Source: Candidatus Aenigmatarchaeota archaeon (lineage in GTDB: Archaea > Aenigmatarchaeota > Aenigmatarchaeia > GW2011-AR5). From it: a stretch of 64,000 nt of DNA. Of the stretch, positions 8,403 to 56,981 are shown one piece after another. The stretch lies in the NCBI GenBank assembly GCA_016187335.1, contig JACPJW010000001.1, forward strand, positions 404,170 through 468,169. The letters run 5' to 3'. The first letter of the stretch is position 1, and each line of letters starts with the position of its first letter. The notes below the pieces were generated by a model that was not told the DNA's origin, did no database searches, and worked only from the letters and a program-made list of their open reading frames with translations. Made by a program: the position numbers and the translations under genes.

Positions 8403-8521
8403 CGCCCCGGGACGGACTCGAACCGTCGACCTTCTGCAATTAGTCAAGAAATCCAAAAACTTGCTTGACTGTTAACAGCCAGACGCTTTAGGCGTCTATC
8501 TACCTGCTGAGCTACCAGGGC
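8403..8521 (-). tRNA. tRNA, anticodon unresolved, with D-arm intron and a second 27-nt hairpin intron
   Basis: Minus-strand 5' GCCCTGG TAGCTCAGCAGGTAG and 3' GACGG-TTCGAGT-CCGTC-CCGGGGC-G; removing a 19-nt hairpin restores D-stem GAGC; two parses give 73-nt exons but neither yields a canonical anticodon loop. Confidence 0.5.
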
Positions 8522-8558: not shown

Positions 8559-9407
8559 TTAGAAGAAAGGCCTTATTACAAGCGCGGTTCCTGCGATAAT
8601 GAACAATGCGCCAATGAGCCTTCTTATCAGGTCTCCTTCCTTGTGGAACAGGTATCCGCCGAGAACGCTTATGACAATGCTCATCTGAACTACTATGGCT
8701 ACGTTGCTCACGTCCGTCAAATTATACGCCGTTATCTGCGAGAAATACCCGGCGGCAGCCAGCAAAGAAACGGCTATCATAGGCATTTTCATCTTATGAA
8801 ATGAAGCCTTAACTCTGTCGGCCCTGCCAAGCGCGGCTGGGGTAAGTATCATTGTAGGAAAAAGAAATACGAGAAATCCGTAGAATGCCGGGGTGAAATA
8901 AGCCAGACCTGTTTTGTCGATTACCGCTACCAAGCCCATAAGAAATGCGTTAATCAAAGTCAGAATTATACCCTTCTTGGAAATCCTTTTCAGCGGGTCT
9001 TTGTGCCATGCAAGGATTACAGCGCCTATCAGCAGCAAAAAGACGCCGAGGAACTTGTTAATCGTTAGCGATTCCTTCAGAATCAGCATAGAAAATATCA
9101 GCGTGAATAAAACGCTGGTCTTGGACAGCGGATCCCTTACAGAAATATCAGTATGCTTGTAAGCTTCGAGGCCCGTCACGTTGGCCAAAACGTACAATGA
9201 ACTCGCAAGCAGGACAATCAGCCACGCAATGTAGCTGGGCGGGAAGCTGGCTTCCCTCACAAACAGGAGAAAAAAGAAAGCCGCTGAAAAGACGTTGAAG
9301 AACCATGCATACACTATGGTGTTTTCCGTCTTCATTATATGCTTCTGGACAAGATTCCCCGCGCCGTAGCAAAGAGCCGCGAAAAGCGCGAGCAGTTCCC
9401 ATGACAT
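8559..9407 (-). CDS. EamA/DMT-family membrane transporter
   Basis: 282 aa, about 10 predicted TM helices in two-repeat arrangement typical of drug/metabolite transporters. Confidence 0.75.
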   Translation of the reverse strand: MSWELLALFAALCYGAGNLVQKHIMKTENTIVYAWFFNVFSAAFFFLLFVREASFPPSYIAWLIVLLASSLYVLANVTGLEAYKHTDISVRDPLSKTSVLFTLIFSMLILKESLTINKFLGVFLLLIGAVILAWHKDPLKRISKKGIILTLINAFLMGLVAVIDKTGLAYFTPAFYGFLVFLFPTMILTPAALGRADRVKASFHKMKMPMIAVSLLAAAGYFSQITAYNLTDVSNVAIVVQMSIVISVLGGYLFHKEGDLIRRLIGALFIIAGTALVIRPFF

Positions 9408-9431
9408 TAGAATACCTTGAGAAACAGGCTT

Positions 9432-12146
9432 TTAATCCAGGAAATCGCCCTTCTTCAGCTTATTAGGAAGGTAGGTCTCGGACATGAACTTAAGGCCGCG
9501 GTGCGACAAAGCTTCTATCTCGGCTTTTATTCCTTTTTCTATCATCAGGTTGATTTCCTTCTTCCATCTCGGGTTCTTGCTAAACCACTCGTAGTTGAGT
9601 AGTTCCTTCGCGCGCTTTATGTCAACTTCCTTGCATTTTATTGTCGCTTTTTTCAGGTCATACTCAAATATATCCGATATAGTAAGACCTATGTATCTGG
9701 CTTCCGGTGTCGCAATCCGATCTGAGACGTGAGCTAGGCTTATGGATCCGGATTTGATAACTGAATAAATATAGAAGCCGTACGAATCACTGTCGCAGCA
9801 TACATATACAGGCAGCTTGTGATCTTGGTTCAGCCTTTGTATCAGCAGCCTTGTTCCGCGTGATGGCTGCCCGCCTGTGCCGATCAAAACGCACTTCTGT
9901 TTCTGCCAGAACTTGTCCTCATGAAGCCGCTCAAAGCCTGCGTTCTTCTCCACGACCAAGACAAAGTCCGCGTTGACTTTTTTGAAATCTATTTCATCCA
10001 CGGTGCTCGGTATGGACCATCCCCCGCTTCCGAGCTTTGACCAGTCTATGCTGTCGCCGCGGTCTTCAATAATAACGTTGCCGGCGACAATGCCCTTTCT
10101 GTCGGTGGTGAGGTGCAATTGCTCGCGCAGAACGTCTATAGCCACTTCTATGTCAACAATTATAGGGTCAGAATTATGTAGAATTATAAATCCATTACCA
10201 CCAATGAAATTCTCAGTAGGTTCGACTGAAAGATCAACTGTATATTCAGGAGTTGGAGCGTCATTTATTTCAACTATCTTGTCCCACATAATGTCACTAT
10301 TAGCTATGGTTTCAAGTTCGGATACCAGCTGTAAATCTGGAGAATACTTTTGTAACTGCATCAAGGCGTTATATAACACAGGTCTGCTTATCGATTCGTT
10401 TTTATTTTCTATATAACTCCATGAAAAGTGGTTCCATTCAACACGATCCTTACAGGACTTTCTGACTTTTTCTACCAATTTCCCTATGTTTGGTATCCTG
10501 TCAGAAGATACGTCGTGTTTCCGCGGCTTACTGAATCTTTTATCATTGATTATTTCAGCCATCAATTTTACATCTTCTCTATTACCTATTCTAATTTCAT
10601 ATGCGTTATGGTGATTAGGATTTTGGACGCTTCTTTTATAGCGATAAATTCTTGCAAAAATTCCAAGCCTAAGCAGTAAAAATACCAATCCGTTAGCCAG
10701 CTTTTCGCTAGTTGTGTGGTACCTTAATCTAAATTTTGGAAGAAAAGTACTACCGTCTCCAAGCATAAACGAGAAAAGAAACATCTGTATACAATTTTCA
10801 GGTGAATCAAGCAAAACACGCGGTATTTCTTTATTCCATGCTCTGCAAGGCTTATACCCAATAACATAAGTCAATATGTGACTCAAAGTATCGTAACCTA
10901 CATTTAGCTTATAAACTCCATCTTTACCTAAACGTATCTTTCCGCTTACACAGCTTTTACCAAATGATTTTTCAAAGCAAATCATAAACTGCTTGAGAAG
11001 CTCTGAAGATTTGTTAGAAATAGCTACATGGTATGATTTTCGTGGTTCAAAAAGTGAATGCGAGCCTTCGCTCAAAAGAAGCCCTAGTACAAATCCTAAA
11101 TTTTCATCTTTTTTTATTAAAGCGTTGTAATAGTTCTTTGCACCCCTTCTTCCAATTTTTATTTTAGGAAGCAGATCTGAAATATCAATTCCGGTCGTTT
11201 TTACGACTTTAATTGGAATTGTTTTCCAGTTAATCCAGTTGGCTTTAACGTCAGACCATACATTCTTGTATCCGAAGTCATTTGAAATATTTTTTAGCTT
11301 ATCATTACCTATAAGCCTGATTATTTCTTTTATCGTGTCTTTATCCGATTTTATGTAAAATTCTTTTAATACACTTTCAGGGCAATTTTCAATAAGCTTT
11401 TCTAAAATATTTATATGATCAGAATTAACACCGACTTCTATTTTTCTTGGGATGGCTATCCAGTCTCCTATCTTTAGTTCTGATGTTTTTATGGATACAG
11501 GTTTTCCTTCAGAATTTGTAAACAAGCTGTGAGATTTAGTTACTTTGACACGCCTGCCACTTGATGTGATTATTTCCTTTACAATGTTAGGCGGGTGTTT
11601 CATTACCATCAGAACTTTCTGCTCCTTAATCCTGTAATTTTCATCGAAAGCGCAAACCTTAATGTCGCCAACTAAAATCTTCTTTTTATTACCATCATCA
11701 TAAATAATTCTCCCAAATTTTTCAGCATGGTCTACGACTTCGCTTGCTTGAGCTATTCTGAGTTCATCGTTTATTCTTACCAACAAAGGTTCATCGGGGC
11801 ATACAGACTCGCTCTGCTCGTCAAAGGTATTCTCGTTGCTGTCCGGCAGTGTCCTTTTCAGGTTGTAGTACATGTCTCGGATGCTGGCATGGATTTTCTC
11901 ATCAATGAGCGATTTACAGAAAGCACCGACCATAAGCGTCTGCATGAACTTCTTGGAGTGCGCGACGTTGAAGTAATACCTTTTTGCTGTCTTGGTGCCA
12001 AGCCTGAGCTGGCCGGTTTTCCTGTCGTAAACTACGTTGGAAAGAGCGCGTATTGGTATCTCTATGTTCGGGTTCTCGCCTTTCTCTATGTCATGCACGA
12101 CTTTCTTGCCCAGAACATTCAGTTCCTTTCTTACGTCTTTTTCCAT
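9432..12146 (-). CDS. top6A: DNA topoisomerase VI subunit A (Spo11-like) interrupted by an intein
   Basis: 904 aa; extein N-part (IPIRALSNVVYD...RDMYY) and C-part (WSKLGSGGWSIPS, Toprim LIGTGGQPSRGTR) match Top6A; central 543 aa has intein/LAGLIDADG blocks. Confidence 0.85.
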   Translation of the reverse strand: MEKDVRKELNVLGKKVVHDIEKGENPNIEIPIRALSNVVYDRKTGQLRLGTKTAKRYYFNVAHSKKFMQTLMVGAFCKSLIDEKIHASIRDMYYNLKRTLPDSNENTFDEQSESVCPDEPLLVRINDELRIAQASEVVDHAEKFGRIIYDDGNKKKILVGDIKVCAFDENYRIKEQKVLMVMKHPPNIVKEIITSSGRRVKVTKSHSLFTNSEGKPVSIKTSELKIGDWIAIPRKIEVGVNSDHINILEKLIENCPESVLKEFYIKSDKDTIKEIIRLIGNDKLKNISNDFGYKNVWSDVKANWINWKTIPIKVVKTTGIDISDLLPKIKIGRRGAKNYYNALIKKDENLGFVLGLLLSEGSHSLFEPRKSYHVAISNKSSELLKQFMICFEKSFGKSCVSGKIRLGKDGVYKLNVGYDTLSHILTYVIGYKPCRAWNKEIPRVLLDSPENCIQMFLFSFMLGDGSTFLPKFRLRYHTTSEKLANGLVFLLLRLGIFARIYRYKRSVQNPNHHNAYEIRIGNREDVKLMAEIINDKRFSKPRKHDVSSDRIPNIGKLVEKVRKSCKDRVEWNHFSWSYIENKNESISRPVLYNALMQLQKYSPDLQLVSELETIANSDIMWDKIVEINDAPTPEYTVDLSVEPTENFIGGNGFIILHNSDPIIVDIEVAIDVLREQLHLTTDRKGIVAGNVIIEDRGDSIDWSKLGSGGWSIPSTVDEIDFKKVNADFVLVVEKNAGFERLHEDKFWQKQKCVLIGTGGQPSRGTRLLIQRLNQDHKLPVYVCCDSDSYGFYIYSVIKSGSISLAHVSDRIATPEARYIGLTISDIFEYDLKKATIKCKEVDIKRAKELLNYEWFSKNPRWKKEINLMIEKGIKAEIEALSHRGLKFMSETYLPNKLKKGDFLD
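10173..11801 (-). mobile_element. Intein with LAGLIDADG homing-endonuclease domain inside top6A
   Basis: Begins with Cys after ...DEQSESV, block B GRRVKVTKSHSLFT, LAGLIDADG-like LGFVLGLLLSEGS and FLFSFMLGDGS, ends GFIILHN followed by Ser; region is A/T-rich relative to exteins. Confidence 0.7.
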
Positions 12147-12184
12147 AGAATCACTTTCCCAAAATATGGTTCCATTCCGCTTTA

Positions 12185-13837
12185 CTATTCTTCTTCAGCT
12201 TCTTCAGGCTTTTCTTTTTTAGGGTTCGACTGCGCAGCCGCCAGCTGCGGCGGCTGGACCGTTTCCAGCTCTTCGAAATCTTTCATCTTGTTCTTGTTTT
12301 CTATTATGGACAGCAGCTTCTTTTCTATAACAGCATCCTTGTCGCCCGTGAGAACGGACAGCGACGAGGCAACCTCCTTTGCGTACCTTTCAAAAATCTG
12401 TATCCTGCGTTTCTGCTCGCCGGCGCGCCGCTTTCCCGAAAGGTAGCGGGACAGCTCACGTGCCGCGTCCTGTATTGCCAGCTTCATTTCCTTGACAATT
12501 TCCGGGTACGGCGCAATGGCTTCTTTGCTTTCCGAAACGAAGGGCACCCACACGGACGACATGTGTATTACGAGAATCATGGGGCCTGATGGCAGCGAGT
12601 TCTTCGGATGCTGCAAGCCATACCGCTTCCAGTCCACGTCCTTGGCAGCTTCCGTCGTTGCGCAAGCGCCTGCTTGGTAGAGAAGAGGCACCCTGTTTGC
12701 AATTCTTATCACGTCTATCTGCTCTTCCAAAGCGCCTACATTGCCGAAAACGATGCCGATTTCAATCTGGAAAGGCATGCCGCGATAAACTTCACTTTCC
12801 CTTCCAATCACGGTTATAAATTCAGCCTGCGGATATTCCTTTTTCAGGCTTTTCTCGAGCTCTGCTTTCCCTACAGGCGACAGGCAATCCAAAGGAGGCC
12901 TTTGTATCTTGACTTTCTGCATGGCGCTGAGCAGTTTTTCTATTCCCGCCCTGTCAAGCGCCTGGGGCTTTCCGTTCGGATCTATTTTTGCCGTTTTGCA
13001 TATTTCCTTTGCTGTCTGCGACCCCACGGAAGAGAACTCGTTTACAAGAAATGACTGCACGGTCTTTGAATTTGTTTTTGACAGGAACCGCTGCAGAATT
13101 CCGAACTCAACGCCGTAGGGGTGCATTCTCATTTCCTTCGGCGGCTTCGGGAGATCGTCAAAGCTCCTTGGAAATGCCATCTTTGTTCCGTCGGGGGCGT
13201 GATAATTTATCTTTGCGAAAGGGTTTGAGATGCTCGTCTGCTTGAGATAGTCGTCAACGCCCTGCGTTTTCCTGTAGCGCCCGACAACATCAATTTCAAC
13301 TTTAACGCCGCGCTCCAGCCCGTCTTCCAGCGTTTCTTCCTTCACGATTTCCGGCTCGTTCTTGCTTGTGTTGATAAAAAGCTCGTAGTAACTGACCTTT
13401 TTCTTTTCGTCGGTCCTGGACCATACCTTTGTGGGGGAGCCTGTTGTAAGCTGCGAATAGAGCACCACAGCGGAAATTCCTATGCCCTGCTGGCCTCTTG
13501 ACTGGCGAAGACGGTGGAACTTGCTGCCATAAAGCAGTTTTCCGAAAATTCTGGGCACTTGTTCTTTCACGATGCCCGGTCCGTTGTCCTGTACGGTCAC
13601 GCGGAAGCGGTCCTCCCCGGTCTGCTTTATTTTCACGTTGATGTCCGGCAGAATGCCTGCTTCCTCGCATGCGTCTAGGGAGTTGTCCACGGCTTCCTTT
13701 ACGGTCATCAGCAGCGCTTTTGTCGGGTTGTCAAAGCCCAAGAGATGCTTGTTTTTTTCAAAGAACTCGCTTATTGATATTTCCTTCTGCTCTTTAGCAA
13801 ACTCCTCAGCGGTTTTTTTCGGGGATTTGTCAGACAT
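12185..13837 (-). CDS. top6B: DNA topoisomerase VI subunit B (GHKL ATPase)
   Basis: 550 aa; Bergerat-fold motifs (EAVDNSLDA, DNGPGI, GQQGIG) and transducer domain; directly upstream of top6A. Confidence 0.9.
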   Translation of the reverse strand: MSDKSPKKTAEEFAKEQKEISISEFFEKNKHLLGFDNPTKALLMTVKEAVDNSLDACEEAGILPDINVKIKQTGEDRFRVTVQDNGPGIVKEQVPRIFGKLLYGSKFHRLRQSRGQQGIGISAVVLYSQLTTGSPTKVWSRTDEKKKVSYYELFINTSKNEPEIVKEETLEDGLERGVKVEIDVVGRYRKTQGVDDYLKQTSISNPFAKINYHAPDGTKMAFPRSFDDLPKPPKEMRMHPYGVEFGILQRFLSKTNSKTVQSFLVNEFSSVGSQTAKEICKTAKIDPNGKPQALDRAGIEKLLSAMQKVKIQRPPLDCLSPVGKAELEKSLKKEYPQAEFITVIGRESEVYRGMPFQIEIGIVFGNVGALEEQIDVIRIANRVPLLYQAGACATTEAAKDVDWKRYGLQHPKNSLPSGPMILVIHMSSVWVPFVSESKEAIAPYPEIVKEMKLAIQDAARELSRYLSGKRRAGEQKRRIQIFERYAKEVASSLSVLTGDKDAVIEKKLLSIIENKNKMKDFEELETVQPPQLAAAQSNPKKEKPEEAEEE

Positions 13838-28827: not shown

Positions 28828-28940
28828 GGGCTTGTAGTCTAGAGACCCTTTAGAAAAAGCGTCTACGAAAAGGGTTGGAAAATGGTTATGACGTCGCCTT
28901 CACACGGCGAAGGTCGGCGGTTCGAATCCGCCCGAGCCCA
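28828..28940 (+). tRNA. tRNA-Val (anticodon CAC) with 40-nt D-loop intron
   Basis: GGGCTTG-TA-GTCT-AG [intron 28843-28882] TGGTTA-TGAC-G-TCGCC-TTCACAC-GGCGA-AGGTC-GGCGG-TTCGAAT-CCGCC-CGAGCCC-A; exons sum to 73 nt. Confidence 0.8.
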
Positions 28941-46533: not shown

Positions 46534-48327
46534 ATGGCAAAGGAAAAAATAGTGCCTGATACGTCAGTGATTATTTCAGGCATCTTAACGGATCTGATAG
46601 CCAAAGGCGAGCTGTCGGACGCGGAAATAATCATGCCGGAGTTCGTTGTGGAAGAGCTTCGCGCCCAGTCGTCAAAAGGCAGGGAAATAGGCTTCAAGGG
46701 CCTGGAAGAACTGAAGAAATTGCGGGAGCTCAGCGGCGAGAAAATCAAGCTTGTCAAAATAGGCCGCAGGCAGACGATGGAGGAAATACAATTGGCAAAA
46801 TACGGCAGGATAGACGCTCTAATCATTGATATTGCCAGGGAATACGATGCCGTTCTTTACACTGCTGACTATGTCCAGTTCCTCGTGTGCGATGCCGAGG
46901 GCATCAAGACGCGCTACTTCAAGCCTTACGAAAAAAAAATAGAAACAAAGCTTTCCTCGATGCTGACCAAGGATACAATGTCCCTGCATCTGAAGGAAGG
47001 GACGGTGCCGATGGCGAAGCGAGGCCTGCCCGGTAAGTTTTCTTTAGTCAAGCTGAGGGAGGAGCTGCTGACAGAGGACGAACTGGAAGAGATTATCAAG
47101 GAGGTCATGGACGCGGCCAGGTATGAAGAGGACACGTTCATAGAAGTGGGCGGCCACGTGGCTTCTGTCGTGCAGATGGGCGACATGAGGATAGCGATAG
47201 CACGTCCTCCTTTCTCCGACGGCGTAGAGATTACAGTGGTCAGGCCAATAATCAAGCTGACGCTGGAAGACTACAAGCTTTCTGAAAAGCTCAAAGAGCG
47301 CCTTGCAAAGCGCGCTGACGGAATTCTCATAGCCGGCCCGCCCGGCTCAGGAAAAAGCACTTTTGCCGCCTCCCTTGCGGAGTTTTATGAAAGACAGGGC
47401 AAGATTGTGAAGACAATGGAATCACCAAGGGACTTGCAGGTAGGCCCGGAGATAACGCAGTACAGCAAATTGAAGGGCTCTTTCGAGAATACAGCGGACA
47501 TGCTCCTGCTTGTGAGACCGGACTACACTGTTTTCGACGAGGTGCGGAAAACCGAGGACTTTCTTATATTCAGCGACATGCGCCTTGCGGGAATAGGCAT
47601 GATCGGCGTTGTCCATGCCACGGAGCCCGTTGACGCCGTGCAGCGCTTCATCGGCAGGATTGAACTGGGCATGGTGCCTCACATCATTGACACAATCATA
47701 TACATCAAGGACGGCGTCATCAAAAATGTTTACGTATTGTCTTTGGTCGTGAGGACGCCGACAGGCATGACAGAAGCTGACCTGGCAAGGCCTGTTGTTG
47801 AAGTCAGGGATTTTGAAACAGGAACAATGGAATACGAAATATACACCTACGGCGAGGAGAACGTAATCATACCGGTGAAAGAGAAAAAAGAATCAGCGCT
47901 GCAAAGGCTTGCCAAAAAACACATATTCGAGGAAATCAAGCGCTTCGACAGGGACGCGCAGGTGGAATTCATGAGCGACGAGAAGATCCTCGTCAAGGTG
48001 GACAACGAAATTATCCCAAGAATCATCGGCAAGGAAGGCGTGACTATAAAGCATCTGGAAGAAAAGCTGGGATTGCACATTGACATCCTGCCGAAGGTGG
48101 AAACATTCGGAAAGGAGACGAAGTTTGACCAGGAAGAGAGCGGCGCGTACATGCAGTTCGTTTTCAGCGAGAAGCAGGGCAGGATTGTCAACTTCTACGC
48201 AGGAAAGGATTATTTGTTCTCGGCAACAATAGGCAAGAACGGCCGCATCAAGGTCAGCAAGGATTCCGATATAGGCAAGGAAGCCATGAAGGCGCTGGCC
48301 AAAGGGACCCTGAAGACGTTTGTATAA
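46534..48327 (+). CDS. PIN-domain/PilT-family ATPase with C-terminal KH domain
   Basis: 597 aa; N-terminal PIN-like region, Walker A GPPGSGKST, KH motif IIGKEGVTIKHLEEKLG. Confidence 0.8.
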   Translation: MAKEKIVPDTSVIISGILTDLIAKGELSDAEIIMPEFVVEELRAQSSKGREIGFKGLEELKKLRELSGEKIKLVKIGRRQTMEEIQLAKYGRIDALIIDIAREYDAVLYTADYVQFLVCDAEGIKTRYFKPYEKKIETKLSSMLTKDTMSLHLKEGTVPMAKRGLPGKFSLVKLREELLTEDELEEIIKEVMDAARYEEDTFIEVGGHVASVVQMGDMRIAIARPPFSDGVEITVVRPIIKLTLEDYKLSEKLKERLAKRADGILIAGPPGSGKSTFAASLAEFYERQGKIVKTMESPRDLQVGPEITQYSKLKGSFENTADMLLLVRPDYTVFDEVRKTEDFLIFSDMRLAGIGMIGVVHATEPVDAVQRFIGRIELGMVPHIIDTIIYIKDGVIKNVYVLSLVVRTPTGMTEADLARPVVEVRDFETGTMEYEIYTYGEENVIIPVKEKKESALQRLAKKHIFEEIKRFDRDAQVEFMSDEKILVKVDNEIIPRIIGKEGVTIKHLEEKLGLHIDILPKVETFGKETKFDQEESGAYMQFVFSEKQGRIVNFYAGKDYLFSATIGKNGRIKVSKDSDIGKEAMKALAKGTLKTFV

Positions 48328-51832: not shown

Positions 51833-53170
51833 ATGAGGAAATATCTGTTATCAATAGTCCTGCTGCTGCTTTCGTCTGTACCTGTTTTTGCAGTGGGCAA
51901 CCTCACGGTTTTCAGCGTTCCTTTATCACAGCCGGCTGTCTACGCAAACACCAACCAGTCCGTTAACGTCCTTAACCTGACCCTGAACGTGACGGCGGGC
52001 AGCGGCGCGGACGGCGTCATCAACATAACTGTCATCAATATTACGGTGACCAACAGCAGCGAAGGCAACCTGTCAGCGGGCAATATATCAGCGGTTGAGG
52101 TCAGGAACAGCACGGGGTTCCCGATAGCAAGGAACACAACAGTCAATCCTGCAAACAACATGACGTTCACGATTTCAATCCCGGGAGGGCTGACCATAAA
52201 CACATCTAATGCGACCATATGGATTGCCATCAACATATCAAGGTCGGCGGCGCGCTTCCTGAACATATCAGTGAACATAACGGGTCCCGGGGAAATAGGC
52301 ACGAACAGCTCTGTGAACAATATCACGATATCAGGCGTTTCAATAAAGTCAAACGGCGTGCAGATACAGAATTTACATTCAAACTCAACAATATCGCCGC
52401 GCTTTGTGGACACGGGCGTTGAGAACCAGTCGTTCACTTACACCTTGGTTCCGCCGACTGGAACGGATGCAATAAAGAACGTCAGTATTTCGTTCCCGGC
52501 CAATTACACCTTGTCCAAGCTCATTTCAATAATGGTTGGCGGCGGCGTCCCGGACGGCGCGACAAACAATACAGCCGTCAACGGCATAAACATTTCCCTG
52601 AGCACGGCCACGACCCAGACAATACAGGTAAACTTCACCGCCAACACTTCCGTCAATCCTATCCAGAACAGGGCGTTCTCATCAACCCTGGACGGAGGAA
52701 ACCTCTCTGCCGTGTCAACTGATCCCACGCTGGAAGGGGTGAATGTAAGCACACAGCCCATACTGAACCTTACGAACGTCACCCTGGTAAAAAGCACTGC
52801 AATAATCAACGGCACCGATTACTGGGAATTCAATTTCACTTTGAATTACACTGCCAACATATCAACAGGAGGCCTGATTCAGTTCAGGCTCACGGACTGG
52901 AACACTTCTTCCGGCAGCACGCTTGCATTGAACAATTCATTGTGCGATGGCAGCAGGTGCGCGTCCCTGAGGAACGAGACAACCATGAACACCACAGGGA
53001 AATTCAACATAACGAATGATTACGAATCTTTCACAAAGGGAATCACCATATCGTCCATAACACAGGGCACCCTGACAATACTGGTCTTGAGAATGGTAAT
53101 ACCTTCAAATGCCCCGACATCATCCAACTGGCAGGCTGCTTACGGATTTTTGTTCAGGTCAAGCCCTTGA
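51833..53170 (+). CDS. Secreted surface protein, extremely N-glycosylation-sequon rich
   Basis: 445 aa; signal peptide MRKYLLSIVLLLLSSVPVFA; about 40 N-x-S/T sequons counted by hand. Confidence 0.6.
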   Translation: MRKYLLSIVLLLLSSVPVFAVGNLTVFSVPLSQPAVYANTNQSVNVLNLTLNVTAGSGADGVINITVINITVTNSSEGNLSAGNISAVEVRNSTGFPIARNTTVNPANNMTFTISIPGGLTINTSNATIWIAINISRSAARFLNISVNITGPGEIGTNSSVNNITISGVSIKSNGVQIQNLHSNSTISPRFVDTGVENQSFTYTLVPPTGTDAIKNVSISFPANYTLSKLISIMVGGGVPDGATNNTAVNGINISLSTATTQTIQVNFTANTSVNPIQNRAFSSTLDGGNLSAVSTDPTLEGVNVSTQPILNLTNVTLVKSTAIINGTDYWEFNFTLNYTANISTGGLIQFRLTDWNTSSGSTLALNNSLCDGSRCASLRNETTMNTTGKFNITNDYESFTKGITISSITQGTLTILVLRMVIPSNAPTSSNWQAAYGFLFRSSP

Positions 53171-53191: not shown

Positions 53192-54403
53192 ATGGATTAT
53201 CGCCTTTCAATACTTTTAGCTGCGGCATGCCTGCTTCTGCTGTCCTTCGTTTCCAGAGGAGAAACAACCGGCAATGTAAGCATCTCAACGCAGGGAAATA
53301 TTTCCCCGTCAACAGGGGTTTACGGATATGTAGCTCCCGGCGGATGCAACAGCAACGCGGAGTGCTACGACTATAAATGCTTCCAGGATTTTTTGGTGCC
53401 ATCCGGAAACAAGACCGGCAGGTGCGACGTCCCGGCAACCACAAAATGCTTTCACAGCGGGACAGGCTATTCAACCGGCACTTATTATTGCTCGGCTAAC
53501 ACATCGTATTACCGGTGCGATACAGGCGGCAACGGAAGCTGGACAGGCGCGTTTTCGTGCTCGTCAGGCCAGACGTGTTCTGTTGATAGTACGTCGTCTT
53601 CAGCCCCTTGCTCAACATCGTCGCCTTCAAGCAGCTCAAGCAGCAGCGGAGGCGGAGGCACAGCAATAAAGAAAGCCTCTGTCCAGCTTGTCTCGGGCAT
53701 AGCCGGCTTTGAAATTTATCAGGAGGAAGATGTCAACAAAACGGTTATCGTGAAAAACAACGGCGATTATGTCCTTGGCAATGTCTACCTTGACATACAG
53801 GGAATTCCTTTTGCTTCCGTCCTTACGGGCAGCAGCGAGATCAATTTGTCAAAAAATTACAACTTCACCGTGTCTTTCATGCCCAAAAACTCTACTGAAA
53901 TCAGGACGTACCCCGCCAATGCAACGGTTTATACCAACTTCACCAATACGACGGCAAACTTTTCCTTCACAGTCAAAGTACTCCCAAGCAACAGGACCGT
54001 TTCAGAGTCAATCATTCCCGCGTACGCAGAATATATCAACCTTTCTCTGGAATACGAAAAGAACGTAACGGCCCTGGAAAAGGAAGGGCATAACCTCACG
54101 GATGCGAGGGCGATTCTTACGACAATAAAGGCAAAGATGCAGGACATCAACCAGTCGATATCCAAGAAGGACTACTTTTCTGCTGCATCCCAGATCAGCG
54201 AGGTGAAGGTTCTTTTTGATGAGCTCCAGAAAACCATTTCAAAATCCGAAAAGCCGAAAGGAACGGATATAATAATTTATCTGGCCGTCGCCGCTGCCAT
54301 TCTGGTGGCAGTTATTCTGGCCTACCTTCTGTGGCCGTCAAAGCAGCAAAGAAGAGTTTTTCAGGGCCAGCAGTATTCGCAAGCAGCAGTAATTAAGCAA
54401 TAG
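53192..54403 (+). CDS. Surface protein with Cys-rich N-domain, Ser-rich linker and C-terminal TM anchor
   Basis: 403 aa; signal peptide, Cys-rich segment, poly-Ser stretch, many sequons, C-terminal hydrophobic helix IIIYLAVAAAILVAVILAYLLW. Confidence 0.6.
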   Translation: MDYRLSILLAAACLLLLSFVSRGETTGNVSISTQGNISPSTGVYGYVAPGGCNSNAECYDYKCFQDFLVPSGNKTGRCDVPATTKCFHSGTGYSTGTYYCSANTSYYRCDTGGNGSWTGAFSCSSGQTCSVDSTSSSAPCSTSSPSSSSSSSGGGGTAIKKASVQLVSGIAGFEIYQEEDVNKTVIVKNNGDYVLGNVYLDIQGIPFASVLTGSSEINLSKNYNFTVSFMPKNSTEIRTYPANATVYTNFTNTTANFSFTVKVLPSNRTVSESIIPAYAEYINLSLEYEKNVTALEKEGHNLTDARAILTTIKAKMQDINQSISKKDYFSAASQISEVKVLFDELQKTISKSEKPKGTDIIIYLAVAAAILVAVILAYLLWPSKQQRRVFQGQQYSQAAVIKQ

Positions 54404-54758
54404 AGATCCGGCCGGCGTCAGCGGCTGGTGGTTTCTTTCCCTGAACCGACCTTTCTGCGGCAAACTTGCAGAGGATGACAAATCTGCTGTTCAGTTCGCC
54501 GCGGTCAAGCTTGTTTTCAAAAATCACGGAAGCCAGTTTTCTCGCCTCTGAAATTATTTCGTCGTTGGAAAAAACCCTGTCGTTTTTCCCCCTTATCCTG
54601 CGCAGGTATTGCGATATTGCCGGCTGCGATATTCCCATCAGCCTTGCGGCCTCGCTCTGGTTAAGATTGTAGCCCTCAATAAGCTCTCTGGCTATCAATG
54701 ATCTCAGAGACGGAACTATTTCGCTGGCAATCAGTTCCCATTCAATTTTCATTTTCAA
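54393..54758 (-). CDS. HTH transcriptional regulator
   Basis: 121 aa; helix-turn-helix NQSEAARLMGISQPAISQYL. Confidence 0.55.
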   Translation of the reverse strand: MKMKIEWELIASEIVPSLRSLIARELIEGYNLNQSEAARLMGISQPAISQYLRRIRGKNDRVFSNDEIISEARKLASVIFENKLDRGELNSRFVILCKFAAERSVQGKKPPAADAGRISIA

Positions 54759-54993: not shown

Positions 54994-55518
54994 TTATTTC
55001 TTCATCATCAGGGGCTCCCCTTTTTCAGGGTAATGCACGTCAATCAGCTCGTAATCCTGCAGTACGCGGGCCCACTGCTCTACAAGGCCTTCATGGACGC
55101 CGAATTTCTTCGCGGCGTCTTTCAGTTTCACCTTTTTGTTTTTCATCACCAGGTCAAACAGCTCGTCCAGAGGCGCCTTGTAATCCTTCTTCAAATCAGC
55201 AATAACCTTTTCATTGCTCACGATGCCTTCCTTGGCGACTCTTTCAAAGAACTTTGCATTATCAATGATTATCTGCTTTGCAGGCTTGACAATGCTTTCT
55301 TTTACCGGCTCTGAAATGCTTGGCAGCTTTCTCAGAATATCCTTGTATCTTTCAAGAAGAAAATCCCTGTCGCTTTTCAGCTCGATGTTTTCTTTTTTCA
55401 GCTTGATTATAGTATCCTTCATGATGGAGAAGGATTCCTCCATGCGCTGCATCCTCCTGTTCATTTCCCTTTCAAGTCTGGCAATTTTTTTTTCGGCGTC
55501 GTCAGCGAATAGAGGCAT
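54994..55518 (-). CDS. Coiled-coil hypothetical protein
   Basis: 174 aa; heptad-like charged N-terminal half. Confidence 0.45.
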   Translation of the reverse strand: MPLFADDAEKKIARLEREMNRRMQRMEESFSIMKDTIIKLKKENIELKSDRDFLLERYKDILRKLPSISEPVKESIVKPAKQIIIDNAKFFERVAKEGIVSNEKVIADLKKDYKAPLDELFDLVMKNKKVKLKDAAKKFGVHEGLVEQWARVLQDYELIDVHYPEKGEPLMMKK

Positions 55519-55578: not shown

Positions 55579-56379
55579 ATGTACGTTGTCAAGGCCGACG
55601 GCCGGCGCGAGACTTTCAGCAAAGAGAAAATAATAAATACATGCCTCAAGGCCGGAACCGACAGGAAGAAGGCTGAGGAAATATCAGGAAAAGTTTTTTC
55701 GTCCGTCAAAGACGGGATTGCCACGAAGGAAATATACAGAATGATTCTGAATCTTCTTGAAAAAGCGAGCCATAGGTCATCTTTCTTTTTCCGCCTCAGG
55801 GACGCAATAGCAAAGCTCGATTCTGAAAGCTATGAACTCTATGTAAAAGAGCTTTTGGAATCCATGGGCTACAAATGCTCGTGGAATAAAATCATTGCCG
55901 GAAAATCCGTGGAGCATCAGGTTGATATTGTTGCAAAAAACGCGAAAGGCAGAATGTTTCTTGTTGAATGCAAAAGGCACGTGAACCCCCACAGGTTCTG
56001 CGGCCTGGGCGTCATTTTGCAGGTCCAGGCGCGCCTTGAGGACATAGATGACGGCTTCGAATCAGGGAAAAATAATTGCAGGTTTGACCAGGCGTGGATA
56101 TTCAACAACACGAAATTCTCGGAGCACGCAAAGCAGTACGCTGCGGCAAAAAATATCCTCCTGAGCGGATGGGGGTACAAAGGAAGCATTTCTATAGAAA
56201 AGCTTGCTGGCAGGAACAGGATATATCCCGTGACGCTGCTGAAAGCAGACAATTCAACAATACAGCAGCTGCTCCGTCAGAAAATAATCACGGTGGAGGA
56301 TGTCCTGAAAGAAAAGATAAGCATGCCGAAGAGCGTTGCCGATGAGCTCAGGAAGCAGGCACGTATCATTCTTTCTTAA
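55579..56379 (+). CDS. ATP-cone domain fused to Mrr-like restriction-endonuclease domain
   Basis: 266 aa; ATP-cone start MYVVKADGRRETFSKEKI; nuclease-like core YELYVKELLESMGYK...QVDIVAKNAKGRMFLVECKRH. Confidence 0.6.
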   Translation: MYVVKADGRRETFSKEKIINTCLKAGTDRKKAEEISGKVFSSVKDGIATKEIYRMILNLLEKASHRSSFFFRLRDAIAKLDSESYELYVKELLESMGYKCSWNKIIAGKSVEHQVDIVAKNAKGRMFLVECKRHVNPHRFCGLGVILQVQARLEDIDDGFESGKNNCRFDQAWIFNNTKFSEHAKQYAAAKNILLSGWGYKGSISIEKLAGRNRIYPVTLLKADNSTIQQLLRQKIITVEDVLKEKISMPKSVADELRKQARIILS

Positions 56380-56404: not shown

Positions 56405-56509
56405 GCCGGCGTCGCATAATCTGGTGGTGCACTGATTGCATGCGAAGCAAGTGTATGTCTCGAAAACCAGCGGGCTCTGCCCATGCAGGTTCAAATCCTG
56501 CCGCCGGCG
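56405..56509 (+). tRNA. tRNA, anticodon unresolved, probably intron-containing
   Basis: Acceptor GCCGGCG/CGCCGGC with discriminator G; T-arm GCAGG-TTCAAAT-CCTGC; internal 73 nt could not be folded into a unique cloverleaf. Confidence 0.5.
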
Positions 56510-56513
56510 CTTT

Positions 56514-56981
56514 ATGATAGAAATAAAACTAGCTGCTGAAAAGGATAGGCAAGGCTTTGAAAATCTGGCTGCAGAAAGAGACAAAGAAATAAGGCAGCGC
56601 AGGGCAAAAAATTACTGGGGCAAAAAATTCACGAAGCTTGTCATGGAAAAGAGGCTGGTAATTAGCCTTGACAAAGGCAAGCCATCAGGATTTCTTTATT
56701 TTACATTCGAATTTATCGACTATCCTGCGGCGTACGTTGAGCTTATTTTTGTTTCAAAGAAGAGCCGGAGAAAGGGTTCAGCCTTGTATTTGTTGAATAG
56801 ATTCGAGCGGCTCGCGTCAGAAAACGGTTTTGTCAATGTATTTTCCAGCACAAATCCAAGCAACAGGATCTCGCTGAAATTGCACAAGAAGCTCGGCTAC
56901 AAAGAATGCGGCTTTATCTACGGCATAGAAAACAGGCGCAGCAAGGAGATTTTTCTCTCAAAAGAACTGAAAAAAACCTAA
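56514..56981 (+). CDS. GNAT-family N-acetyltransferase
   Basis: Start taken at MIEIKLAAEK; acetyl-CoA motif region VSKKSRRKGSALYLLNRFERLA. Confidence 0.6.
   Translation: MIEIKLAAEKDRQGFENLAAERDKEIRQRRAKNYWGKKFTKLVMEKRLVISLDKGKPSGFLYFTFEFIDYPAAYVELIFVSKKSRRKGSALYLLNRFERLASENGFVNVFSSTNPSNRISLKLHKKLGYKECGFIYGIENRRSKEIFLSKELKKT

Follow-up and report, generated by a model that had tools for sequence, protein, structure and literature searches.

The ATP-cone is the textbook allosteric switch of ribonucleotide reductases (RNRs) and of the repressor NrdR. In NrdA, NrdB, NrdD and NrdR, the output module of the cone is a reductase or a Zn-ribbon, whereas in the gene described here the output is a nuclease. 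This gene, the plus-strand open reading frame (ORF) at 55579-56379 of a 64-kb stretch of an Aenigmatarchaeota contig (hereafter the window), encodes an ATP-cone, a PD-(D/E)xK nuclease of the AF1548 family, and a helix-hairpin-helix (HhH)-like C-terminal domain. The combined reading, to which a probability of roughly 0.45 can be given, is that of an ATP-cone-switched AF1548-family nuclease that serves the turnover of nucleic acids and the salvage of nucleotides. Its biological role is far less certain than its architecture and catalytic competence: that nucleotides regulate the enzyme, that DNA is cut, and that the enzyme plays a part in salvage can be inferred, the last because of gene context in relatives.

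Card1, Can2, and Cdn1 follow a like design, in which an adenine-nucleotide sensor is joined to a nuclease; they carry a CARF sensor and a PD-(D/E)xK nuclease and are activated by cyclic oligoadenylates. In contrast, the ATP-cone replaces CARF in the window protein, CRISPR or defence context is absent, and the ligand is likely a primary metabolite (ATP or dATP) and not a second messenger. The Type IV enzyme Mrr belongs to the same Pfam family, Mrr_cat, and shares the (N/T)-T-K-F-S...A motif that follows beta4. However, the inheritance and context of Mrr are unlike those found here, as the window family is inherited vertically and its context is housekeeping rather than restriction-like. The winged-helix reader Mrr_N gave no match even at E<=10, the N-terminus being the ATP-cone, and because this domain is lacking the protein is not an Mrr-type Type IV enzyme. 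The original prediction, made from the letters of the window, described the gene as an ATP-cone fused to an Mrr-like nuclease; the Mrr likeness holds for the catalytic fold and fails for the Mrr-type N-terminal domain that reads DNA modifications, and the family closest to it is AF1548. When the Protein Data Bank (PDB) was searched by sequence, it returned one entry, 1y88, which is AF1548 of Archaeoglobus fulgidus (E=4.5e-25, residues 89-247), and the window protein is closely similar to it in both sequence and structure, including the AF1548-like_C domain. The deposited AF1548 chain (199 aa) differs in being without the ATP-cone and begins at about residue 66 of the window protein. In other Archaeoglobi homologues (L057, L058, L063, L065 and others) the cone is complete and bears the canonical K-R-D-G motif; the cone was lost in A. 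fulgidus, or else the start codon of AF1548 was mis-called.

In the ORF listing, the gene is complete, with an ATG start and 266 codons followed by a stop. A 100% identical protein is held by NCBI under the label 'MAG: restriction endonuclease [Candidatus Aenigmarchaeota archaeon]', MAG standing for metagenome-assembled genome, and the protein is already public with both domains annotated. What is new here is the functional reading of an ATP-cone that drives a nuclease. Pfam hmmscan found three domains, each above its curated gathering score: ATP-cone (PF03477) at residues 1-65 (E=3.6e-9; 37.5 bits, cut-off 25.8), Mrr_cat (PF04471) at residues 78-195 (E=3.2e-10; 40.6 bits, cut-off 21), and AF1548-like_C (PF22357) at residues 216-247 (E=2.8e-6; 27.8 bits, cut-off 23.9). 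The profile search therefore establishes the predicted fusion as real, and adds a third domain that the original prediction did not describe.

The cone consists of a beta-hairpin (residues 2-4 and 10-12) and four helices (15-24, 29-42, 49-62, and 66-78). It is a complete ATP-cone, in which the N-terminal hairpin caps a four-helix bundle within the usual 80-90 residues or so. The only match of the protein in PHROGs is also cone-like and aligns its N-terminus with the N-terminal region of the RNR large subunit. In the NrdR of S. coelicolor, the nucleotide is contacted by V48, K50, R51, E56, F58, and K62 (PMC9110341). The corresponding region of the window protein reads V3-V4-K5-A6-D7-G8-R9-R10-E11-T12-F13-S14-K15-E16-K17, so that the motif V3-x-K5-A6-D7-G8-x-x-E11-x-F13-x-x-x-K17 occupies the contact positions and five of the six contacts are kept (V3, K5, E11, F13, and K17). 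Counted over 81 non-redundant family members, which is the set used for all residue conservation below, K5 is present in 78, G8 in 79, E11 in 69, F13 in 74, K17 in 78, and T49 in 73. Since five of six contacts are kept and the positions are mostly conserved in the family, the cone looks functional, and nucleotide binding is likely.

The nuclease domain has the alpha-beta-beta-beta-alpha-beta core of the restriction-endonuclease-like fold, and carries a family-specific ECKRHxNPHR loop and a W-I-F-N-N-T-K-F-S motif. E86, D116, E130, and K132 are invariant in all 81 sequences, and in 35/35 of a smaller set; H134, D155, N177, and S181 are likewise invariant (81/81). The predicted catalytic residues of AF1548 are D38, E51, and K53 (PMC1821046), to which D116, E130, and K132 correspond in the alignment. 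From this invariance an active nuclease is predicted, and the enzyme looks catalytically competent. The C-terminal domain is HhH-like, with conserved P217, T219, and D241, and is a probable module for non-specific binding of the DNA backbone or for dimerisation. Structural neighbours include MspJI, AspBHI, Card1, Can2, Shedu SduA, and Avs nuclease domains, and the substrate is probably DNA by analogy with these fold neighbours and in view of the HhH-like domain. Regulation of the nuclease by nucleotides, as originally predicted, stands as a plausible and well-supported inference from the presence of both domains, the invariant catalytic residues, the mostly conserved contacts, and the stable fusion, with the reservation on one contact residue discussed below.

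An exhaustive HMMER search of 1.84 billion representatives of clusters at 50% identity found relatives in 526 clusters at E<=1e-10, and in 763 when the threshold was relaxed to E<=1e-3. Of the 150 best clusters, almost all are 260-290 aa long and align from residue 1-3 to about residue 245; the near-uniform length and end-to-end alignment indicate that the three-domain fusion is ancient and fixed. A relative is encoded in 393 GTDB species-representative genomes, belonging to Aenigmatarchaeota, Woese-, Undin-, Nano-, and Micrarchaeota, Archaeoglobi, and the candidate phyla radiation (CPR)/Patescibacteria, together with single Bathyarchaeia and Methanobacteriota MAGs. In a neighbour-joining tree the sequences group largely by taxonomy, and a scan of 2.9 million viral contigs gave no relative. 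The gene behaves like a vertically inherited housekeeping gene rather than a mobile defence gene, and the window copy is an ordinary, intact, stand-alone member of the family.

The gene context of the relatives gives an unexpected indication of a role. In all, 160 related loci from GTDB and metagenomes were examined; the ORFs of 81 loci were clustered without annotation, and the recurrent clusters were annotated afterwards. The metagenome scan used an alignment of the clade outside Aenigmatarchaeota. Linkage was defined as ribose-1,5-bisphosphate (R15P) isomerase, AMP phosphorylase, RuBisCO, or phosphoglycerate mutase (PGM) within five upstream genes on the same strand. In the Aenigmatarchaeota clade, a same-strand cluster ends with the nuclease and has the order (GAPDH, PGK), IF-2B-family R15P isomerase, (HAD), (form III RuBisCO large subunit), AMP phosphorylase, PGM, and nuclease. 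A pathway gene lies within five upstream genes in 31 of the 36 informative loci of this clade and immediately upstream (position -1) in 30, so that the nuclease closes the archaeal AMP/pentose-bisphosphate operon (DeoA, E2b2, and form III RuBisCO) in 30/36. The gap to the upstream gene is mostly -11 to +26 nt, and the public annotation of the neighbour is 'AMP phosphorylase'. Most loci have ApgM at position -1 and others have an unrelated His_Phos_1 mutase there, but the nuclease is kept in either case. Three loci (L064, L069, and L134) show the linkage with an Archaeoglobi-like-clade nuclease about 37% identical to that of the window; as the linkage is kept with so distant a nuclease, this is not one operon copied around. 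As a side observation, the PGM position shows non-orthologous displacement between a cofactor-independent ApgM type and a His_Phos_1 (dPGM-like) type (L011, L018, L019, and L051 versus L005, L007, L009 and others).

Other lineages have other stable contexts. In Undinarchaeota, the nuclease lies beside a Na+/H+ exchanger and ParA. In Archaeoglobi, the order is RtcB, Cob_adeno_trans, nuclease, and signal-peptide peptidase, or the neighbour is MscS with DUF432. In a bacterial lineage, represented by eight loci on metagenome contigs (L118, L128, L140, L148, L157, L158, L159, and L164), the order is NusB (minus strand), DnaA, nuclease, and a pilus-type T2SSE ATPase (PilB/GspE-like, type II/IV). The nuclease identity in this lineage is 40-81%, and the gap to the ATPase is 2-14 nt in five of the eight loci. 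This pilus-ATPase context is compatible with DNA uptake followed by degradation.

The proposed mechanism would start from an AF1548-family PD-(D/E)xK endonuclease that is cytoplasmic and catalytically competent, and whose activity is probably switched on or off by adenine nucleotides on the N-terminal ATP-cone. ATP, dATP, or other adenylates on the cone may alter the oligomeric state, as in RNRs and NrdR (PMC9110341). Such a change would assemble or break up the nuclease dimer or oligomer, which the C-terminal HhH-like domain would position on DNA. The role would be a controlled breakdown of nucleic acids for turnover and salvage, tied to the adenylate status of the cell. The products would feed the route of AMP phosphorylase, R15P isomerase, form III RuBisCO, and PGM, by which DPANN archaea obtain carbon and ATP from nucleotides. 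The sub-lineage of the window has lost the pathway genes at this locus, where the nuclease is probably transcribed alone.

DPANN archaea have been proposed to import DNA via pili and to degrade it with unnamed 'encoded nucleases' that feed the pathway (PMC7414124), and the operon position in Aenigmatarchaeota makes the present family a concrete candidate for these nucleases. This particular nuclease has not been described as part of the pathway; it goes unmentioned in PMC7414124, and likewise in PMC6389311 and PMC5113843, which are analyses of the genomic context of the pathway. The operon link to nucleotide catabolism in Aenigmatarchaeota is unreported. In the searchable literature, no description was found of an ATP-cone-nuclease fusion or of an ATP-cone in DPANN. 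The family is concentrated in DPANN, Archaeoglobi, and CPR, many of which are thought to scavenge nucleic acids. A more far-reaching and rather doubtful proposal is that the family represents the missing 'entry enzyme' with which genome-reduced archaea and bacteria would begin nucleic-acid catabolism. The cone would read the adenylate or deoxyadenylate status and allow imported or excess DNA to be broken down only during a shortage of energy or nucleotides, which would feed the AMP phosphorylase-RuBisCO pathway. If true, control of an enzyme by an ATP-cone would be shown for the first time beyond ribonucleotide reduction and its repressor, and the nucleotide-scavenging lifestyle of DPANN and CPR would gain its first named nuclease. 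A nuclease under ATP-cone control would extend the switch to a new class of output enzyme. The nuclease half has a solved structure, 1y88, available in the PDB since 2004 with no function assigned to it.

Several observations weigh against the salvage reading. Outside Aenigmatarchaeota the linkage is rare: a pathway gene lies within five upstream genes in 3 of 35 informative loci from the rest of GTDB (at -1 in 2/35), and in 2 of 45 informative metagenomic loci of the other clade (at -1 in 2/45), which makes 5 of 80 in total. The claim of a universal link was therefore downgraded to a lineage-specific one, and much of the linkage signal could be synteny inherited within one phylum. The window nuclease itself adjoins no pathway gene, and its closest relatives, P0002 and P0003, are arranged likewise. 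A tblastn search with representatives of AMP phosphorylase, R15P isomerase, ApgM, His_Phos, RuBisCO, HAD, ArsR, and TtuA gave no match in the window, and no AMP phosphorylase homologue on its 918,042-bp contig was among the best 120 of 7006 matches. In the sub-lineage of the window (P0001, P0002, and P0003) and in L021, three pathway genes are gone between a divergent 174-aa gene and the nuclease. As the window copy is without the operon context, the window adds little beyond family membership. In the cone, the equivalent of the phosphate-contacting R51 of NrdR is A6; this position is Ala in 43 and Arg in 20 of the 81 sequences, and while most Aenigmatarchaeota have Ala, 13 of 14 Archaeoglobi have Arg. 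Moreover, the AMP pathway consumes ribonucleotides, yet DNA is the substrate suggested by the fold and the HhH-like domain. Finally, the function of AF1548 is a predicted one (PMC1821046), and the searchable literature yielded a structural-genomics entry and no biochemical characterisation of AF1548 or of any other family member.

Among the alternatives, the one that survives best, though it is rather unlikely, is a structure-specific endonuclease associated with repair or replication and tied to the dATP/ATP pool, in which the cone would link cleavage to the supply of deoxynucleotides or to the replication state. The NucS-like fold and the HhH domain would suit such an enzyme, on the model of NucS/EndoMS or of a short archaeal XPF (nuclease with a C-terminal HhH), and dnaA is adjacent in one lineage. 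However, that lineage is the exception among the 160 loci, in which PCNA, helicases, polymerases, and RadA do not recur; the dominant conserved context is metabolic, and a PIP-box or other evidence of a partner was not found.

A defence function, raised in the original prediction as a possibility, found no positive support. In its most specific form it would be a solitary nuclease, Type IV-restriction-like or abortive-infection-like, that is unleashed when a virus perturbs the ATP/dATP pools. Many restriction and defence effectors have the Mrr_cat fold, a sensor domain with a PD-ExK effector is a typical defence design, and the structural neighbours named above, from MspJI and AspBHI to Card1, Can2, Shedu SduA, and the Avs nuclease domains, point the same way. 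The protein also has a weak match in PADLOC-DB v2, which is to the generic Mrr-like nuclease module of ZorD only (E=9e-9, profile positions 907-1050 of 1071). On the other hand, none of the ten flanking proteins matches ZorA, ZorB, ZorC, or any other PADLOC entry, no PADLOC system is present, and the local GC content is unremarkable. In the 160 loci, the neighbours are housekeeping or metabolic genes rather than defence genes, and methyltransferases, integrases, and other defence genes are not recurrent. Neither Mrr_N nor any other domain that reads modified DNA is present in the protein. Unlike what is seen in mobile defence islands, the tree agrees with taxonomy and synteny persists over 40-50% identity, and viral relatives are lacking. 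A solitary defence nuclease is accordingly improbable. A defence island was also rejected as the leading explanation, as PADLOC gave nothing system-specific, PHROGs gave only the RNR-like cone, and there are no viral relatives.

Card1 and Can2 relatives are able to cut RNA, and the window protein could instead be an RNA- or tRNA-processing nuclease that supplies ribonucleotides directly or matures tRNA. In favour of this, a tRNA gene with an insert lies 25 nt downstream in the window, TtuA (22 loci) and THUMP/ThiI tRNA-modification genes lie downstream in Aenigmatarchaeota, an Archaeoglobi subgroup has RtcB two genes upstream, and the AMP pathway uses ribonucleotides. The tRNA-related signal is weak and heterogeneous, however, with ARAGORN giving mixed tRNA adjacency over 53 loci, and this explanation is very unlikely. 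Slightly less likely still is an NrdR-like nucleotide-sensing transcription factor in which the nuclease fold and HhH domain would act solely in DNA binding, to control the adjacent operon or RNR genes: an ATP-cone with a DNA-binding module is indeed the logic of NrdR, one homologue is annotated 'NrdR family' by JGI, and in Aenigmatarchaeota the gene borders a metabolic operon, but four catalytic residues invariant in 81/81 are unexpected for a binding-only fold, the NCBIfam NrdR model (TIGR00244) reaches 13.5 bits against a cut-off of 124.65 with only the cone region aligned, the protein is not NrdR because it has no Zn-ribbon, and RNR genes recur in no neighbourhood, so that this reading was rejected as the leading one.

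The coordinates of the gene and its parts are collected in Table 1. The A/T-rich element upstream of the gene lies within the 60-nt divergent intergenic region that is shared with the minus-strand gene of the 174-aa protein. It is a putative archaeal promoter of a stand-alone transcription unit, and in relatives similar A/T-rich boxes are found ahead of the first gene of the operon.

Table 1. Coordinates of the nuclease gene, its domains, active-site codons, and upstream element in the window
Feature	Position	Strand	Remarks
ATP-cone + PD-(D/E)xK nuclease + HhH-like C-terminal domain, whole ORF	55579..56379	+	
TATA-like A/T-rich element TTTTTAAAGCTTATAA	55540..55555	+	read from sequence; 24-39 nt 5' of ATG
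ATP-cone domain, residues 1-78	55579..55812	+	
Mrr_cat / AF1548-type PD-(D/E)xK nuclease domain, residues 79-200	55813..56178	+	
E86 codon, helix-1 acidic residue of the PD-(D/E)xK active site	55834..55836	+	invariant 81/81; coordinate verified
Catalytic core D116 ... E130-C131-K132 (D...ExK motif)	55924..55974	+	coordinates verified
C-terminal helical domain, residues 205-266, AF1548-like_C	56191..56376	+	

Upstream of the nuclease, the window contains in order an arginase-family gene, VIT1, two Asn/Ser/Thr-rich secreted proteins, a helix-turn-helix (HTH) protein, and the divergent conserved 174-aa protein. Downstream are the tRNA with an insert, a GNAT acetyltransferase, and membrane proteins including an MscS-like one. 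The 174-aa protein, which has no Pfam match (54994-55518, minus strand), and the 121-aa HTH protein (54393-54758, minus strand) form a conserved pair. In other Aenigmatarchaeota this pair lies just upstream of, and divergent from, the operon of R15P isomerase, AMP phosphorylase, and PGM, whereas here it flanks the nuclease directly. The two proteins are candidate regulators of that operon. The adjacent secreted or surface proteins, at 51833-53170 and 53192-54403 on the plus strand, have no Pfam match; the first contains 40 N-x-S/T sequons and the second 18. Both are probably S-layer or surface proteins with heavy N-glycosylation, and the pair is conserved in the sub-lineage of the window (L085, L086, and L021).

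Rfam (RF00005) places tRNA genes at 56405-56509 (plus strand, 36.8 bits), 8403-8521 (minus strand, 39.3 bits), and 28872-28940 (plus strand, 38.2 bits), while ARAGORN called no tRNA across the whole window. The first of these is the gene that starts 25 nt past the stop codon of the nuclease. The lengths of two of the genes, 105 and 119 nt, suggest archaeal introns or inserts. The mechanical ORF of the GNAT acetyltransferase (56436-56981, plus strand) begins with a TTG that falls within the tRNA gene; translation more likely starts from the ATG at 56514 (MIEIKLAAEKD...), giving 155 aa.

A further group of loci (L090, L094-L097, L101, L104, L106-L108, and L110) has the order DJ-1/PfpI, small unknown proteins, DUF498, and nuclease. 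In loci of the L090 type, the nuclease is followed by a 218-aa protein or a Na+/H+ exchanger, and then, on the other strand, by a gene with a Glu_synthase domain. The 218-aa protein, for which Pfam gave no match, overlaps the nuclease by 8 nt. In the window, a 597-aa protein at 46534-48327 (plus strand) combines PIN, T2SSE/PilT-like ATPase, and KH domains, and this family is met again in an Archaeoglobi subgroup, two genes downstream of the nuclease. L085, which at 67% identity is the closest multi-gene relative of the window locus, contains T2SSF, T2SSF, and T2SSE genes at 8989-12363 (minus strand). These lie just downstream of the nuclease in convergent orientation, would serve type IV pilus or archaellum-like assembly, and echo the pilus-ATPase adjacency of the bacterial lineage.

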